A DNA stretch of 48,046 nucleotides from Candidatus Woesearchaeota archaeon (GCA_018303225.1 JAGVYO010000006.1:1-48046); one strand, 5' to 3'. Numbered from the stretch's first letter, positions 3,032 to 36,672 are shown. A program made the numbers and translations. The notes: generated from the letters alone by a model not told the origin.

Positions 3032-3176
3032 GTCAGAATTTTCCATCCAGTCTTTGACTGGTGGCACAAACTTCCTGTGCCAAAGTTCAGAAAATTCTGA
3101 GCATGCTCAAAAACCACATGAAGCAGACTAGCTCTGCTACAAGCACACTACCCATCTGTGATGGGTGGTTTTTGAC
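3032..3176. repeat. Twin-hairpin (TH) module, expanded copy
   Basis: GTCA-GAATTTTCC[45 nt]GAAAATTC-TGAGCATGCTCA(3098..3109)-AAAACCA[50 nt]GGTTTTT-GAC. Both long loops contain sub-hairpins (CCAGTC/GACTGG, TGGCACA/TGTGCCA, GCAGA/TCTGC, ACCCATC/GATGGGT). Confidence 0.75.
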
Positions 3177-3254
3177 AGGTTTAGGCAGAAATATATTAAA
3201 AATCTGAGAATTAAGATTATTTTTATATAGGTGGAATGGCTCCAAGAGTACATC

Positions 3255-3907: not shown

Positions 3908-4263
3908 AATGCCTGGATACGTATGCACTGGTTGAGATTTCAAGGGGGAATCCAAGCTTTTCAAAGTACGAAGCCGAAGCGTTTCTGATCACGGACGTGA
4001 TCCTTGCGGAATTCTATGGGATTGTCCTCAGGGAGCACGACGAGCGCACGGCTGACTACTGGTTCCGCCGGCTGGCCGCCTACAGCAAGCCCATGAGCAA
4101 AGAACTGCTGGTGGAGTCCGTGAAATACCGGTGCAAGCACCGCGCCAAACGGCTGTCGTTTTTTGATTGCGCCGGATACATATTTGCCCGGAGCCAAAGA
4201 ATACCGTTTGTCACGGGCGACAAAGAGTTTCGGGATGTGGAAGGCGTCGAGTTTGTGAAGTGA
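3904..4263 (+). CDS. vapC: PIN-domain toxin (VapC-like)
   Basis: MKCLDTYALVEI (N-terminal Asp), FFDCAGYIFA and VTGDKEF acidic positions typical of PIN. Translationally coupled to the upstream AbrB-like gene. Confidence 0.8.
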   Translation: MKCLDTYALVEISRGNPSFSKYEAEAFLITDVILAEFYGIVLREHDERTADYWFRRLAAYSKPMSKELLVESVKYRCKHRAKRLSFFDCAGYIFARSQRIPFVTGDKEFRDVEGVEFVK

Positions 4264-4276
4264 CGGCTACGGCAAT

Positions 4277-4411
4277 GTTTTTCTAAGGTCTTCGAATTCA
4301 AAAACCTTACGAAAAACAACGTTTTTCTAAGGTCTTGGAATCAAGAAGATTCCAAAAACCCAACGAAAGCAAAGCTTTCTGGGGTCTTTGAATTCTTCGA
4401 ATTCAAAAACC
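4277..4411 (-). repeat. Family B hairpin-repeat element (copy B1)
   Basis: Reverse complement reads GGTTTTTGAATTC-GAA-GAATTCAAAGACC, then CCAGAAAGCTTTGCTTTCGTTG, then GGTTTTTGGAATC-TTCTT-GATTCCAAGACC, then TTAGAAAAACGTTGTTTTTCGTAA, then a half unit. Collinear with copy B2. Confidence 0.8.
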
Positions 4412-4444
4412 TTTTAAAGGGGCGATTAATTCCTATTCAATCTT

Positions 4445-5296
4445 ATGGCAAAGCAATCCGTACAGGTTCTCGTAAGCGGAGGCCAGGCGACCGCCGCACC
4501 GCCGTTAGGCCCGGCCCTGGGCCCCATGGGCGTGAACATCGGCCAGGTTGTGGGAGATATCAACAAGAAGACCGCCAGCTTTGCCGGCATGCAGGTCCCT
4601 GTCAAAGTCATCGTGGATTCTTCCACCAGGACGTTCGAGATTGAGATCGGTACGCCGCCGGCATCGGCCTTGTTGAAAAAGGAAGCCGGCATTGAGAAAG
4701 GCTCCGGCAATCCGAAAGCAGACAAGGTAGCGGACGTCCTTATCGAGCAGATCATCAAGGTCGCCAAGATGAAAGAGGGCAACCTTCTGGGAAAGACATT
4801 AAAAGAAAAGGTCAAGGAGATCATCGGCACGTGCAATTCCATGGGCATCCTCGTAGAAGGCGTTACGGCCGTAGAAGCCATAAAGCAGGTCAATGAAGGC
4901 AAGTTCGATACGGAAATCAAATCCGAGAAGACCGAATTAACCGCCGAAGAGAAGAAGAAGGTGGAAGAGGAGCGGAAGAGACTGGCCGAAGAGATCCAGA
5001 AGCGCCGTGCCGAGTTCGAAAAGACCGCCAAGGACATCATCGCAGCCATGGCCGGCAAGGAACGCGGAGATATCAAGGCGAAACTGCACGAAGCGGGAAT
5101 CCCCGAAATCATGATCAAGGAGTTGTTACCGGTAGAAGGAGCAGCCGCTGCCGAAGGCGCTGCACCCGGCGCAGCTGGTGCTGGTGCGAAACCGGCCCCA
5201 GGAGCAAAACCCGCTGCGGGTGCGAAACCGGCCGAAGGCGCCAAGGCCGAAGCGCCCAAGAAAGAGGAGAAGAAAGCATCCAAGGAGAAGAAATGA
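4445..5296 (+). CDS. rpl11: Ribosomal protein L11 with ~125-aa C-terminal extension
   Basis: VLVSGGQATAAPPLGPALGPMGVNIGQVV and TPPASALLKKEAG are L11 signatures. After about residue 155 comes a KE-rich helix and an AAPGAAGAGAKPAPGAKPAAGAKPAEGAKAEAPKKEEKK tail. Confidence 0.9.
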   Translation: MAKQSVQVLVSGGQATAAPPLGPALGPMGVNIGQVVGDINKKTASFAGMQVPVKVIVDSSTRTFEIEIGTPPASALLKKEAGIEKGSGNPKADKVADVLIEQIIKVAKMKEGNLLGKTLKEKVKEIIGTCNSMGILVEGVTAVEAIKQVNEGKFDTEIKSEKTELTAEEKKKVEEERKRLAEEIQKRRAEFEKTAKDIIAAMAGKERGDIKAKLHEAGIPEIMIKELLPVEGAAAAEGAAPGAAGAGAKPAPGAKPAAGAKPAEGAKAEAPKKEEKKASKEKK

Positions 5297-21594: not shown

Positions 21595-21647
21595 TTTGAA
21601 GAGATTTTCAAACAAACATTTCCCATTGGAATTTTTTTATTTTTTCT

Positions 21648-21898
21648 TTGCGGTAAGGCTCATCCCAAAAATTTCGGCACGAAATTTTTGGAATAGTACG
21701 CTTTCGCTAAAAAAATGATGTCAAGCGAAAACCGACCACCACCGGTCGGAGACCGGTGGCATGCTCGCTCGCTTCGCTCGCTCGGGTCGGTTTTCTGGAC
21801 CCTCAATTTTCCATGAGGTCGGTTTTCTGGACCCTCAATTTTCCATGAGTCATTTGACCACCACTCCGAGAGTGGTGGAAAATTGAGATTTTAATGCG
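21648..21898 (+). repeat. Family A element (copy A2) carrying a 167-nt nested-hairpin insertion
   Basis: TTGCGGTAAGGCTCATCC-CAAAAATTTCG-GCA-CGAAATTTTTG...AAAAAATGATG, then an insertion at 21721..21887, then ATTTTAATGCGTT. Confidence 0.8.
21786..21849 (+). repeat. Perfect 32-bp tandem duplication
   Basis: GTCGGTTTTCTGGACCCTCAATTTTCCATGAG occurs at 21786..21817 and again at 21818..21849. Confidence 0.95.
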
Positions 21899-21972
21899 TT
21901 GTTTTATTTTTGGCCGATTCCCCGGCATAATAGTTTCTAAAGCGCTAAAGATGATTAGTCGATATTGGCAAT

Positions 21973-22146
21973 TTAATTAGGACCCGAAAAGTTGCATCCC
22001 GTGCATGTGTACCGGGCCGCAATCTCCCGGCAGTGCCGGCACCGGACAATCTCGACCTTGCTGCAGTTCGGGCAGAGAAACCGGACAGCGCCCTGGGTAT
22101 TGGTGATCTGCTTCTTACACGAGGTACAAATGGTACTTTTTTCCAT
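21973..22146 (-). CDS. Small double zinc-ribbon protein (COG2888/DUF1610-like)
   Basis: Below the ORF-track size cutoff. My translation: MEKSTICTSCKKQITNTQGAVRFLCPNCSKVEIVRCRHCREIAARYTCTGCNFSGPN (57 aa, four CxxC pairs). Such a gene commonly neighbours aEF-1beta in archaea. Confidence 0.6.
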   Translation of the reverse strand: MEKSTICTSCKKQITNTQGAVRFLCPNCSKVEIVRCRHCREIAARYTCTGCNFSGPN

Positions 22147-22176
22147 CGACCAGAGGATTTAAGGCTGATTTATAAA

Positions 22177-22273
22177 GGTTTTGAAATCTGAAAGATTGCA
22201 AGACCCCAGAAAGCTTCGCTTTCGTTGGGTTTTGAAATCCGAAGGATTTCAAGACCTTAGGAAGCATAACTTC
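22177..22273 (+). repeat. Family B element (copy B2)
   Basis: GGTTTTGAAATCT-GAA-AGATTGCAAGACC, then CCAGAAAGCTTCGCTTTCGTTG, then GGTTTTGAAATCC-GAA-GGATTTCAAGACC, then TTAGGAAGCATAACTTCC. The last hairpin overlaps the final codons of rtcA on the opposite strand. Confidence 0.8.
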
Positions 22274-23360
22274 CGCAAGCTTGTTGTTTTGCCCGGATAA
22301 TCTTTTTTTCACGGTCAATCTCAAAACAGGGGCCCAGGAACTGCTCGATCACGTAGATGTTGGTAAGCACATGGTTCGTGATTTTGGAAACCGTAATCTC
22401 GCCTCCGAACAGGGCCAACCAGGGCAGCAGATTGTCTGCCAGATATTCGTCCACCGGCGTTTTGTACCCGATCTCGTTGGTCAGCCGCTCCGCCGCCTCT
22501 TTGCCCACGACTTCTGATTTCCTGCCCTTCTCCCCCAGCGCATCGGCGCCGACACGATTGGTTTTTTCGCCATCCGTGGAGAAAACCGCCCACAGCATGA
22601 TGCCCGATCCCGTGCAGGAGGAAGGCGCATACACTTCCTCGACCGAGAGCGGGCATTTCAGGTCCGATAAGATCACCTTGGCAGCCTGGCTTTGGCGTTC
22701 GGCGACCTTGGCGGCCTGCAGATCCTGGGACGCATGGCTGATGCCCCTGACATGCACCAGCGTGCCCTGCTCCATCAGCCTCAACGGCTTGTCTTCGGCC
22801 CGGAGATAATCCCACAGTGCCGAAAAATCCCTGAAATCCGCCAGCGTGTACGGGCTTTCCACCGAGACTTCCACTTTGCCGCCGCCGGCCGGATAATAGC
22901 CCCGCCGGATCAACCGAAAATCTACCTGCCCGTAAGGAGCCAGCACCGGAAGAAGGACCTCGCTGAAATAGTCCGCGGGCATGCTCCATTTCGTATCGGT
23001 TCCGCCGGTGATGCGCAGAAAGATTTTCCGCTCGGTAAAGAAGCAGGGCAGCAGCAACGCCTGCAGCAGCAACGTGATGGAGCCCGCGGTCTTGATATCG
23101 ATGACCAGCGTCCTTGTCTTCAGGCCGTGCGGCGTGAATTTCAGGCGTTCGGATCCGAGAACAGCCCCCTCCACTTCGGCATCGCACAATTCCTGCAGCG
23201 CCTTGATGGCGTACAGGTGCTGGTTCTTCAGCCCGCCCGAACAGCGGCCCTTGCGGATGTTGGAAACCTCAAACGGCTGCTGCGTCAATGCCGAAAATGC
23301 CAATGCTGTCCGGACAATCTGGCCGCCGCCTTCGCCGTAGTTCCCATCCAGGCTGATCAT
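22257..23360 (-). CDS. rtcA: RNA 3'-terminal phosphate cyclase
   Basis: MISLDGNYGEGGGQIVRTALAFSALTQQPFEVSNIRKGR is the RtcA N-terminal signature. Typical length. Confidence 0.9.
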   Translation of the reverse strand: MISLDGNYGEGGGQIVRTALAFSALTQQPFEVSNIRKGRCSGGLKNQHLYAIKALQELCDAEVEGAVLGSERLKFTPHGLKTRTLVIDIKTAGSITLLLQALLLPCFFTERKIFLRITGGTDTKWSMPADYFSEVLLPVLAPYGQVDFRLIRRGYYPAGGGKVEVSVESPYTLADFRDFSALWDYLRAEDKPLRLMEQGTLVHVRGISHASQDLQAAKVAERQSQAAKVILSDLKCPLSVEEVYAPSSCTGSGIMLWAVFSTDGEKTNRVGADALGEKGRKSEVVGKEAAERLTNEIGYKTPVDEYLADNLLPWLALFGGEITVSKITNHVLTNIYVIEQFLGPCFEIDREKKIIRAKQQACGSYAS

Positions 23361-23390
23361 ACAAAGAAAAGAAAAAGAAGGAATTTAAAA

Positions 23391-23531
23391 GGTTTTGGGA
23401 TTCAAAGAATCCCAAGACCCTAGAAAGCCCTGCTTTCGTAATAGCAAATTGCAAAAATAATGGAACTTTTTTGACGCAATTTGCTATTCTAGCAAAGCTC
23501 ACAAAAGTTCATAGATTAATGAGCTTTGCTA
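23391..23531 (+). repeat. Family B element (copy B3) plus two long perfect hairpins
   Basis: GGTTTTGGGATTC-AAA-GAATCCCAAGACC, then CTAGAAAGCCCTGCTTTCGTAA, then TAGCAAATTGC(23442..52)/GCAATTTGCTA(23476..86) and TAGCAAAGCTCA(23490..501)/TGAGCTTTGCTA(23520..31). Confidence 0.8.
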
Positions 23532-25276: not shown

Positions 25277-25346
25277 GCTATCCCTCCTTTTTTGACAAGA
25301 TTCAATTTGAACAGATTAATTTTCCATTGAAATTTTTTAATTTTTA

Positions 25347-25432
25347 GTTGGATAGGGAAATCCCAAAAATTCCGTGCCGGAATTTTTGAATTAAGCACAA
25401 CCTAAAAATAAAGGTTTTTTAGATTAATGCGC
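25347..25432 (+). repeat. Family A element (copy A3)
   Basis: GTTGGATAGGGAAATCC-CAAAAATTCCG-TGC-CGGAATTTTTG...TTAATGCGC. The hairpin is identical to copy A1. Confidence 0.75.
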
Positions 25433-25598
25433 CATTCATTATAGATTCCAAGATGTTTTTCGCACTTCCCACATAAAAAGCTTTCGGTGAAAATCAGGGA
25501 TAGGCAGGGCAAAAACAGCACGCAGGACAAGACCAGGGAAAATCAAAAGCCTTATAAATAAAGCCGCCCTCTCAGTCGCTAAAAGGGGTGGGGATACT

Positions 25599-26697: not shown

Positions 26698-26790
26698 ACC
26701 CTTTCCCACGCAAAAAGCCTATTTAAATGTTTGGCTCAAAAGAGGTGAAATAAGGGGAAAAAATATTGCACATTGACATTTTTATTTTAT

Positions 26791-26974
26791 CTGCGGTAAG
26801 GCCCAAAGGAAAAATGACGCATTGGCAAAAGCCTTTTTATGGGAGAGGGGTTCATTGCAAAATGTCAGAAACCTTTAGGTTTCTGATCATGCTCAAGAAC
26901 CAAAGGTTCTTGACAATTTCATGCCGAAATTTTTGGGCTAATCGCTATCGCTTAAAGAATATTTTTTAATGCGC
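26791..26974 (+). repeat. Family A element (copy A4) interrupted by a TH module
   Basis: CTGCGGTAAGGCC..., then TH module 26864..26914, then AATTTCATGCCGAAATTTTTGGGCTAATCGCTATCGCTTAAAGAATATTTTTTAATGCGC. Confidence 0.75.
26864..26914. repeat. Twin-hairpin (TH) module, compact copy
   Basis: GTCA-GAAACC-TTTA-GGTTTC-TGATCATGCTCA-AGAACC-AAA-GGTTCT-TGAC. Confidence 0.85.
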
Positions 26975-28740: not shown

Positions 28741-28806
28741 CAGCAAAAATTTCCGTAGGAAATTTTTGGTTCAATCGCTAACGCAACATAAATAAGAAAC
28801 AGTGCA
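28741..28806 (+). repeat. Family A element (copy A5, partial)
   Basis: CAAAAATTTCC-GTA-GGAAATTTTTG (28744..28768), then CGCTAACGCAACATAAAT...GTGCAC. Confidence 0.7.
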
Positions 28807-36444: not shown

Positions 36445-36549
36445 TATAAAAAAGTTGCTATATGGGGAACAAGATTGGATATATTAAGAGGGAAACATTT
36501 GAAAAAAATGATGCATTTGAAAGAATTTCTTTTTAACGAAAGAGGAAGT

Positions 36550-36600
36550 GTCAAAAACCGTTAGGTTTTTGAGCATGCTCAGAAATCTTTGATTTCTGAC
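36550..36600. repeat. Twin-hairpin (TH) module, compact copy
   Basis: GTCA-AAAACC-GTTA-GGTTTT-TGAGCATGCTCA-GAAATC-TTT-GATTTC-TGAC. Enclosed by GAGGAAGT (36543..50)/ACTTCCTC (36610..17). Confidence 0.85.
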
Positions 36601-36604
36601 AGAG

Positions 36605-36672
36605 CAAAAACTTCCTCCGGAAATTTTTGGATTGGTCGCTATCGCAACAAAAAATAAAAAAGAAGTTTAATG
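36605..36672 (+). repeat. Family A element (copy A6, right part)
   Basis: CAAAAACTTCC-TCC-GGAAATTTTTG-GATTGGT-CGCTATCGCAACAAAAAATAAAAAAGAAGTTTAATGG. Confidence 0.75.

Follow-up and report, generated by a model that had tools for sequence, protein, structure and literature searches.

Modular palindromic intergenic repeats abutting core promoters in a Woesearchaeota population: a possible archaeal counterpart of REP, BIME and BOX elements

Between several genes of the stretch of archaeal DNA analysed here, which is 48,046 nucleotides long, comes from a Candidatus Woesearchaeota archaeon and is referred to below as the window, lie short hairpin-forming units, designated family B, which raise the question of whether they encode structured RNAs or constitute a class of DNA repeat. 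An earlier note on this DNA had described units flanked by GGTTTT(T)G and CAAGACC, with variable inner stems that remain complementary, and had seen in a conserved T.G pair a pointer to an RNA made from the strand carrying GGTTTT. The reading to which we give moderate confidence, judging from the DNA sequence, is that family B would belong to a single Woesearchaeota population as a lineage-specific DNA repeat, intergenic, palindromic and modular in build, and would be an archaeal analogue of the bacterial REP, BIME and BOX elements rather than a gene for an RNA.

The host is a groundwater Woesearchaeote, a DPANN archaeon. The best genomic relatives of its RtcA protein (RNA 3'-phosphate cyclase) belong to Woesearchaeota MAGs, with 44-56% identity, and identical genes are found on contigs from the Rifle aquifer and from other groundwater assemblies. 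The other neighbours of the repeats are likewise archaeal, namely L11 (with an archaeal N-terminus), a PIN-domain gene, an HVO_2753-type zinc-finger gene, aEF-1beta and Trm1. Near the ends of the window, ORFs 313-732 and 47213-48043 have no called-gene record.

The units themselves are real features of the window: the search pattern GGTTTT-N6-30-AAGACC retrieves 6 of them against 0.28 expected, a number reached by 0 of 100 shuffled sequences, and direct reading of the sequence agrees. They fall into three loci, labelled W1 (4267-4411, minus strand), W2 (22177-22276, plus strand) and W3 (23391-23441, plus strand), whose components, together with the adjacent TATA boxes, are as follows.

4412-4419, plus strand: TATA box of the L11 gene (TTTTAAAG), directly abutting W1; the ATG is at 4445, 33 nt after the TATA start.
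4383-4411, minus strand: W1 unit 1, TATA-proximal, GGTTTTTGAATTC-GAA-GAATTCAAAGACC, with a 13-bp stem and T.G at position 4.
4361-4382, minus strand: W1 mini-hairpin, CC-AGAAAGC-TTT-GCTTTCGT-TG.
4331-4360, minus strand: W1 unit 2, GGTTTTTGGAATC-TTCTT-GATTCCAAGACC, with a bulged T.
4307-4330, minus strand: W1 variant mini-hairpin, TT-AGAAAAAC-GTT-GTTTTTCGT-AA, in which a G-C pair has become A-T on both sides, with a T5 run on both strands.
4287-4306, minus strand: W1 truncated unit 3, GGTTTTTGAATTCGAAGACC.
4267-4286, minus strand: W1 partial mini-hairpin (TTAGAAAAACATTGCCGTAG), ending 3 nt past the stop codon of the PIN gene (4261-4263).
22169-22176, minus strand: TATA box of the HVO_2753-type zinc-finger gene (TTTATAAA on the minus strand); the ATG is at 22146, 30 nt after the TATA start.
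22177-22205, plus strand: W2 unit 1, TATA-proximal, GGTTTTGAAATCT-GAA-AGATTGCAAGACC, with one A.G mismatch.
22206-22227, plus strand: W2 mini-hairpin, CC-AGAAAGC-TTC-GCTTTCGT-TG.
22228-22256, plus strand: W2 unit 2, GGTTTTGAAATCC-GAA-GGATTTCAAGACC.
22257-22276, plus strand: W2 distal variant mini-hairpin, TT-AGGAAGC-ATA-ACTTCCGC, closed by a pair that reads C.A here and T.G in the sense orientation.
23384-23390, minus strand: TATA box of RtcA (TTTTAAA on the minus strand); the ATG is at 23360, 30 nt after the TATA start, and the promoter is kept in an array-less relative.
23391-23419, plus strand: W3 unit, GGTTTTGGGATTC-AAA-GAATCCCAAGACC; in other strains its place is taken by an array resembling W1, with two units or more.
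23420-23441, plus strand: W3 mini-hairpin, CT-AGAAAGC-CCT-GCTTTCGT-AA.

Read in the GGTTTT orientation, W1 thus consists of a unit, a mini-hairpin, a second unit, a variant mini-hairpin, a truncated unit and a partial mini-hairpin, W2 of a unit, a mini-hairpin, a unit and a variant mini-hairpin, and W3 of a single unit followed by a single mini-hairpin. The linker between units is the mini-hairpin AGAAAGC-NNN-GCTTTCGT, found exactly at all three loci with the loops TTT, TTC and CCT, just as the earlier note had described it; the inner stems that it listed and the A.G mismatch of the unit at 22177-22205 are also borne out by the sequence reads. Its description of units with fixed flanks holds as well, apart from the bulged T in the unit at 4360-4331, and its three loci were rightly placed, although W1 extends to about 4267 through the partial mini-hairpin and the third locus comprises 23391-23441 only. 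Beyond the W3 mini-hairpin, the interval 23442-23531 contains two hairpins unlike family B.

On the sense strand of the neighbouring genes, the repeating module is 51 nt long and consists of the mini-hairpin ACGAAAGC-NNN-GCTTTCT followed by a 29-31-nt unit of the form GGTCTTG-variable stem-loop-CAAAACC. One to three such modules are arranged head to tail from the stop codon of the upstream gene to the TATA box of the next gene, and the units are in direct orientation in every array. The sense-strand layout is accordingly a stop codon, (mini-hairpin + unit)n, CAAAACC immediately followed by TATA, about 22 nt and the ATG. Arrays start 0-25 nt past the upstream stop codon, with the exception of W2, which begins within the last six codons of RtcA: the minus strand of its distal mini-hairpin supplies these six codons together with the TAA stop. 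This overlap apart, all copies of family B are intergenic. Identical family B sequences are carried by independent assemblies of several samples, which rules out an assembly artefact.

Outside the window, the exact unit/mini-hairpin junction pattern was found on 6 JGI metagenome contigs, all of this population and three of them bringing new sequence, whereas 185,579 species of GTDB, each scanned through a single representative genome, gave 0 matches and viral contigs likewise 0. Public contigs contributed three further loci and one alternative allele. The first of these loci, on contig L006, is a two-unit array upstream of the undecaprenyl-diphosphate synthase (UPPS) gene; the second, on L008 and L011, is one module between divergent genes for a CDP-alcohol phosphatidyltransferase and CDP-archaeol synthase; at the third, on L036, the start of the W1 array is fused, within a unit, to another downstream gene, of which the search recovered only fragments, from relatives. 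Within the approximately 100 kb of host genome in reach, 6 loci and 10 distinct units are therefore on hand. The earlier note had recommended a search with a covariance model of the family. Such a model, built on unit plus mini-hairpin and run with filters off on the window and about 77 kb of contigs, and under default filter settings on about 336 kb of additional sequence, returned no additional or more divergent copies in the window, the contigs or the relatives, about 260 kb of the searched DNA coming from 17 relatives; one weak match (13.9 bits at 36550-36600) belongs to a different hairpin family. The lack of copies outside the contigs of this population indicates that family B is narrow in lineage, and the frequency with which contigs break in arrays suggests that the genome may hold more copies.

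Comparison of strains and relatives gives an indication of the age of the arrays. In L054, a syntenic relative whose RtcA is 60% identical and whose upstream gene order is the same, the TATA box lies 0-3 nt past the upstream stop codon and there is no array; the TTCTTTTTCTTTT that precedes the ATG in the window is shared, and the window carries 181 nt of hairpins where L054 has none. At the UPPS gene, a sister species (UPPS 67% identical) shows ACATTCCATAAGG joined to TATATAAAC where the focal genome has ACATTCCAAAACC joined to TATATAAAC, that is, a one-arm remnant and no detectable unit. Similarly, L059, a relative sharing 85% identity in the gene that follows the L036 junction, has kept the TATA region with only a degenerate remnant upstream. 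Turnover is also seen between strains: on contigs L002 and L005, which stem from two independent assemblies, the W3 site is occupied by a W1-like array with no fewer than two units, within flanks that are 99.3-99.4% identical to the window. A chimeric assembly was considered for this allele and rejected, as both assemblies carry it; that the allele is real also follows from its difference from W1 at two positions and from the shortness of the sequence, 13 nt, that W1 and W3 have in common at the junction. Besides, many public contigs terminate within arrays. The array-less promoters of relatives and the differing strain alleles show the arrays to be young, fast-changing insertions upstream of pre-existing promoters.

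The point of insertion is remarkably constant in the sample from which the docking and orientation rules are drawn, namely six loci in about 100 kb of host genome. At 6 of 6 loci (W1, W2, W3, L006/L042, L008/L011 and L036), the GGTTTT end of the array meets an A/T-only 7-8-mer (TTTTAAA, TTTATAAA, TATATAAA or TTTAAAAA) with a gap of 0 nt. The ATG of the opposite-strand gene lies 30-33 nt from the TATA start, the exception being L036, where the distance is 45 nt and an SD-like GAGGG is present. An archaeal core promoter, in the sense of an A/T-rich 8-mer about 30 nt before the ATG combined with an A-rich BRE, is recognisable at all six. The promoters concerned serve the genes for L11, the zinc-finger protein and aEF-1beta, RtcA, UPPS-GAN and the CDP-alcohol phosphatidyltransferase. 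The spacing is the usual one in this genome: among the called genes on the fetched contigs, 22 promoters have a TTTAWAWA-type box starting near -30 from the ATG, which implies mostly leaderless mRNAs; the UPPS start given by the gene caller matches the database protein exactly, and its spacing to the TATA box fits the same rule. In the 21 promoters without family B, A is the commonest base at -5 to -3 from the TATA box (12, 13 and 15 of 21) and G at -4 occurs in none; a simple weight matrix scores CAAAACC at 4.8 bits and CAAGACC at 0.1 bits. The CAAAACC arm that touches the TATA box hence looks like the A-rich BRE of the host, whereas the flipped orientation, presenting CAAGACC, would not.

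The folding properties of the units bear on what kind of constraint they are under. Counting over the alignment of 10 units with their mini-hairpins, 93% of cells are paired and 7 pairs have changed on both sides, a result equalled by 0 of 500 shuffles, and pairing falls to about 60% when the partner is shifted by one column; the statement that the variable stems remain complementary is in this way substantiated. The foot of the hairpin, including its single mismatch, is conserved, and the upper stem varies with full Watson-Crick compensation. The T.G pair at stem position 4 is present in 9 of the 10 aligned unit rows, these nine comprising 8 distinct unit sequences. It was described as common to every full unit, which stands for the window; the new unit at L006 6201-6230 lacks it, having an A at the wobble position that results in T-A plus a bulge. 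Such a copy had been named beforehand as a finding that would speak against the RNA. No variable stem pair of the ten-unit alignment uses a wobble on either strand. In addition, two mini-hairpins, at 22257-22276 in the window and at L006 6231-6252, have undergone a G-to-A change at the closing pair, so that the pair reads C.A in the GGTTTT orientation and T.G in the sense orientation. Either strand can fold, and the one carrying GGTTTT is more stable by about 4 kcal/mol per unit; on the sense strand, where in this comparison every unit shows a C.A mismatch (L006 6201-6230 having T-A at the wobble position), full-length units reach -6 to -15 kcal/mol and the truncated unit 4306-4287 alone is unfolded. 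Finally, identical stems can carry reverse-complemented loops, GAA in the unit at 22228-22256 and TTC in that of L008, which is the product that would be expected of recombination between the arms of a DNA palindrome and would be an odd triple change for an RNA loop.

As a repeated, short and intergenic imperfect palindrome, family B answers to the description of the REP and BIME elements of Enterobacteria and Pseudomonas. The likeness extends to the length of about 30 nt, the mosaics formed with other short conserved motifs, the conserved mismatch that gives polarity, the compensated stem changes, the lineage-specific consensus, and the copy number and arrangement that vary between strains. 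Nevertheless, BIME units alternate in orientation whereas those of family B are all direct; REP sequences have a GTAG-type 5' tetranucleotide, which is absent here, and are G+C-rich and bacterial, whereas family B is A/T-rich and resides in a DPANN archaeon. REP are also found with an associated RAYT (a Y1 HUH transposase); the Pfam assignments precomputed for the genes of the fetched contigs (about 100 kb) include no transposase or HUH/RAYT-type gene. To our knowledge, docking onto BRE/TATA in a fixed orientation has not been described as a property of REP. The BOX elements of Streptococcus pneumoniae and the Correia and ERIC elements resemble family B in being modular, with a variable number of an internal module of about 45-50 nt, in forming hairpins between genes and in their ability to affect the expression of neighbouring genes. 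BOX, however, has distinct boxA and boxC ends and is thought to be mobilised in a MITE-like way, whereas no end modules are seen in family B, and the two have no sequence similarity. REP-like palindromes of archaea figure in a survey published in 2025 (PMC12306157), but only in a loose and generic sense of the term, and repeats of this kind in Woesearchaeota or other DPANN lineages did not turn up in the literature searches. The family is undescribed, and its direct tandems of two alternating hairpins and its fixed orientation relative to BRE/TATA set it off from known repeats.

Under the palindromic DNA repeat reading that we favour, new modules would arise as DNA copies of existing ones, made by ectopic gene conversion or by tandem duplication between arrays. 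Alternatively, a structure-specific enzyme acting in trans on single-stranded hairpins could spread them, the G.T then being a mismatch tolerated in single-stranded DNA. Only one docked orientation may survive because CAAAACC can replace the A-rich BRE that TFB needs beside the TATA box; CAAGACC set against the TATA box would put a G where host promoters never have one. The same constraint may also account for the asymmetry of the arms that was previously read as a wobble. This argument covers the TATA-adjacent unit, whereas common descent would be the only reason for internal units to retain the asymmetry; the strict compensation of the stems, for its part, would also be compatible with selection on RNA structure. 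As to mobile elements, the hairpins of IS200/IS605 are recognised as single-stranded DNA, and insertion takes place in one orientation beside a short A/T-rich target. The sub-terminal hairpins of IS200/IS605 and of their non-autonomous derivatives (PATEs) are, like the units, strand-specific imperfect hairpins with a conserved foot, and as a lead, by analogy, this behaviour would fit both the G.T polarity of family B and its docking at a TATA-like sequence. Yet no TnpA or TnpB gene occurs in the approximately 100 kb covered, family B has no distinct left and right ends, and its tandem alternation of two hairpin types is atypical of IS200/IS605. A bolder version, which we consider rather doubtful, holds that the 51-nt module could be a promoter-targeting mobile hairpin cassette, inserted as single-stranded DNA just upstream of the TATA box in one orientation and bringing its own BRE (CAAAACC) and a one-way antisense terminator. 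If this were true, the element would rewire or insulate core promoters while spreading, a behaviour not known from REP-like elements or from archaeal promoters.

A cellular function at the boundary between transcription units would be secondary to this origin, the case for a role in termination or insulation being circumstantial. The arrays could halt read-through from the upstream gene by means of their hairpins and of the T4-T6 runs that they carry on both strands, and they could halt divergent antisense transcription begun at the near-symmetrical TATA box. Taken as the primary explanation, which seems to us rather improbable, this would mean that the mini-hairpin and the GGTTTT(T) run end divergent antisense transcripts, so that the array acts as a one-way insulator between packed transcription units, and that the C in GGTCTTG serves to take the T-run off the sense strand. 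Divergent transcription is reportedly found at archaeal promoters. Symmetrical promoters are reported to be transcribed divergently (Warman et al. 2021, as cited in PMC10268837). In agreement with such a role, the mini-hairpin followed by GTTGGGTTTT(T) is flagged as terminator-like on the GGTTTT strand at 4379-4365 and 22209-22223, the four arrays of sufficient length (W1, W2, W3 and L006) have T4-T6 runs on this strand at a distance of about 54-77 nt from the TATA box, the single-module L008 has a T5 run about 17 nt beyond its mini-hairpin, and all arrays are docked on the TATA box in one fixed orientation. Archaeal oligo-T terminators likewise place T4-T6 runs, frequently next to a hairpin, in the narrow space separating a stop codon from the following promoter, but ordinary ones are not built from 51-nt repeats whose stems covary and whose junction with the TATA box is constant. 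Moreover, T4 runs are weak archaeal terminators, the terminator-like sites are only mildly enriched (about 2 sd in a generic terminator scan), and the sense strand has T5 runs too, at the stop-codon end of W1, W3 and L006. A T-run on the sense strand ahead of the promoter would be harmless, which leaves a weak case for keeping the C, and the same promoters work in relatives without any array.

The structured antisense RNA with which the question began now appears quite unlikely. According to this reading, the units are transcribed from the GGTTTT strand as small hairpin RNAs, and selection on the RNA maintains the G.U pair and the compensated stems. Its main supports are the T.G of nine rows, the better folding of the GGTTTT strand, the covariation of the stems and the orientation of the GGTTTT strand, which is antisense to the adjacent gene at all three window loci, as had been claimed, and at 6 of 6 loci when the new ones are included, a check that had also been suggested; the flanking genes read opposite to it are PIN and L11 on the plus strand and RtcA, the HVO_2753-type zinc-finger gene and an 80-aa ORF on the minus strand. 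The T.G, however, is one position of the conserved foot inherited by all copies and hence effectively a single observation, it is absent from the unit at L006 6201-6230, the two G-to-A mini-hairpins are polarised oppositely, and no variable pair has G.U; in the light of these points, the proposal that an RNA is made from this strand is not supported. The layout of the promoters is equally unfavourable. Archaeal transcription starts about 25 nt past the TATA box, and since the sole TATA box near the GGTTTT end abuts the unit, the start would fall about 25 nt further on, in the loop or the 3' arm, leaving the hairpin of the first unit outside the RNA; single-unit loci (W3 and L008) would give no unit hairpin at all, the start falling inside the unit. 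The BRE-like A-tract is on the side that directs transcription to the protein gene, there is no second TATA box upstream on the GGTTTT strand at the loci read, and orthologous sites in relatives are without units. No TATA/BRE is thus placed to start transcription before the first unit, and the polarity of the wobbles is mixed, which is not what a gene for a structured antisense small RNA would present. A search of Rfam 15 gave 0 matches at the gathering threshold, permissive filters yielding only miRNA-precursor-like hairpin noise far below it, and a scan for tRNA and tmRNA returned nothing. The pointer towards a GGTTTT-strand transcript would seem weak, nothing beyond the single wobble adding to it. 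If the antisense RNA were real, it would add a new family to the RNAs of archaea, though this is not the reading favoured by the available evidence.

Transcription of the other strand has also to be weighed, since REP sequences in E. coli stabilise upstream mRNAs against 3'-to-5' decay and sense-strand arrays could do the same as 3'-UTR hairpins. The start of the arrays within 25 nt of the upstream stop codon, or ahead of it in W2, the folding of the full-length units on the sense strand and the T.G that both variant mini-hairpins form there would all suit this function. It is nonetheless given little probability: L008 lies between divergent genes and has no upstream gene to stabilise, the sense T5 runs at the stop-codon end of W1, W3 and L006 mean that the TATA-proximal units may seldom be transcribed, a C.A mismatch occurs in every unit on the sense strand, and the exact docking on the TATA box is left unexplained.

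A protein-binding function is just as hard to sustain. Archaeal activators such as Ptr2 bind immediately upstream of BRE/TATA, which is where the arrays lie, and the half-sites GGTCTTG and CAAAACC, whose centres are about 22 bp apart, could in principle bind a dimeric factor, as operators or upstream activating sites that co-regulate the docked promoters; the conserved outer arms around a variable centre and the mostly housekeeping, growth-related nature of the docked genes would agree with this. A protein site, however, needs no self-complementary variable centre, the copy number ranges from 1 to 3 and differs between strains at one and the same promoter, the internal units and the second conserved hairpin are unexplained, relatives have the same promoters without the site, and no candidate regulator was identified, so that we regard a shared operator as distinctly improbable.

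Several other classes were considered and rejected. A MITE would show terminal inverted repeats or a target-site duplication, neither of which is visible, and no array has, at its stop-codon end, a second copy of anything like the TATA-side junction; only 3-5 nt lie between the 13-bp arms of a unit. In a CRISPR array the units would not differ from one another as they do here, the 22-nt 'spacers' are in fact a conserved hairpin, there are 1-3 units only and no cas genes are nearby. Integron attC sites measure 57-141 nt against 29-31 nt for the units, the GGTCTTG/CAAAACC flanks misfit their core sites, the neighbours are housekeeping genes and no integrase was found. Readings as a replication-origin ORB or as protein-coding sequence were rejected on anatomy.

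The intergenic regions of the same genome contain at least two other families of hairpin repeats, one of which is common to the sister species, so that family B belongs to a broader, as yet unexplored set of structured repeats between the genes of this lineage. In bacteria, short interspersed palindromic repeats have been studied extensively, in archaea hardly at all, and in the reduced genomes of DPANN least. At a practical level, the arrays break metagenome assemblies and mark strain polymorphism as well as at least one apparent rearrangement junction, which makes them relevant to the curation of MAGs and to strain typing. As to the biology of the organism, a reduced DPANN genome, in which intergenic bases are costly, still accumulates fast-changing hairpin modules at the upstream edge of BRE/TATA, and the arrays thereby constitute a natural experiment on the ways in which core promoters of archaea put up with insertions or make use of them, and on the separation of adjacent transcription units.

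Family B arrays form the start or end point of many public contigs from the focal population, among them L002 (1-115), L005, L004/L007, L009 and L010, whose ends fall at window positions of about 23380-23440 and 22200. Since so many contigs start or stop inside these arrays, the family B repeat fragments metagenome assemblies, and the breaks hint at further copies elsewhere in the genome. In one assembly (contig L003, about 1090-1130, corresponding to window 23384-23403), five clustered substitutions affect the 5' arm of the unit at locus W3, reading GGTTGGGAGATTA where the W3 unit has GGTTTTGGGATTC and thereby destroying the hairpin; the explanation is either decay of the allele or a mistake in assembling a mixture of strains. 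A contig at low coverage (L036, 0.8x) has a junction at 495-640, where the PIN gene, together with the beginning of array W1, is fused to another downstream gene (MKDPKDLL...) that has a TATA box of its own. The junction, which falls within a family B unit, is either a chimeric assembly or a rearrangement at the repeat, and under both readings it reveals one more family B unit docked on a promoter.

Regarding the extent of the W3 locus, the third family B interval of the earlier note had taken in 23442-23531, which has to be withdrawn: the two additional hairpins found there, both starting with TAGCAAA, are not family B. They occupy the remaining space between RtcA and the 80-aa ORF.
23442-23531, hairpin 1: TAGCAAATTGC...GCAATTTGCTA
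23442-23531, hairpin 2: TAGCAAAGCTCA...TGAGCTTTGCTA

A second repeat family located between genes, family A, is distinct from family B. Its core, CCAAAAATTYCG-NNN-CGRAATTTTTGG, folds into a perfect hairpin and shows T5 on each of the two strands; around it lies a conserved frame of 60-117 nt (GCGGTAAGGCTCATCC ... GCTATCGC). As with family B, promoters lie immediately downstream of these elements; in contrast to family B, the family A hairpin is also found in the sister species, whose UPPS is 67% identical to that of the focal genome. The third family, C, is composite (GTCA-hairpin-GAGCATGCTC-hairpin-TGAC). The flanks of family B are similar to its hairpin arms (TCAAAAACC/GGTTTTTGA), and the sole weak extra match of the family B model, at 13.9 bits, is a family C element (36550-36600).
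14228-14344: family A
21636-21700: family A
25320-25436: family A
26779-26951: family A
28742-28799: family A
36603-36660: family A
43882-43961: family A
L050 (contig outside the window) 2654-2678: family A
about 3050-3200: family C
26860-26915: family C
36545-36605: family C
46760-46870: family C
L059 (85%-identical relative, outside the window) 130-250: family C

The family A copy at 21636-21700 lies within a 360-nt gap without coding (21616-21972) that separates the aEF-1beta gene from the zinc-finger gene, and to which nothing in Rfam matches. Two further features are present in this gap.
about 21737-21761: strong G+C-rich hairpin, CACCACCGGTCGGAGACCGGTGG
about 21785-21850: 33-nt tandem repeat, GGTCGGTTTTCTGGACCCTCAATTTTCCATGA x2
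The copy number of this tandem repeat appears to differ among assemblies, to judge by BLAST segments that overlap at 21817.

At the protein level, the L11 gene (4445-5296) encodes a product of 283 aa in which the two L11 domains span residues 6-137 only, the C-terminal extension being of low complexity, with an 18-nt tandem coding repeat at 5179-5250. Finally, the distal mini-hairpin variant at 22257-22276 encodes the final six codons of RtcA (CGSYAS) and its TAA stop; a housekeeping protein has therefore had its C-terminus remodelled by the repeat.
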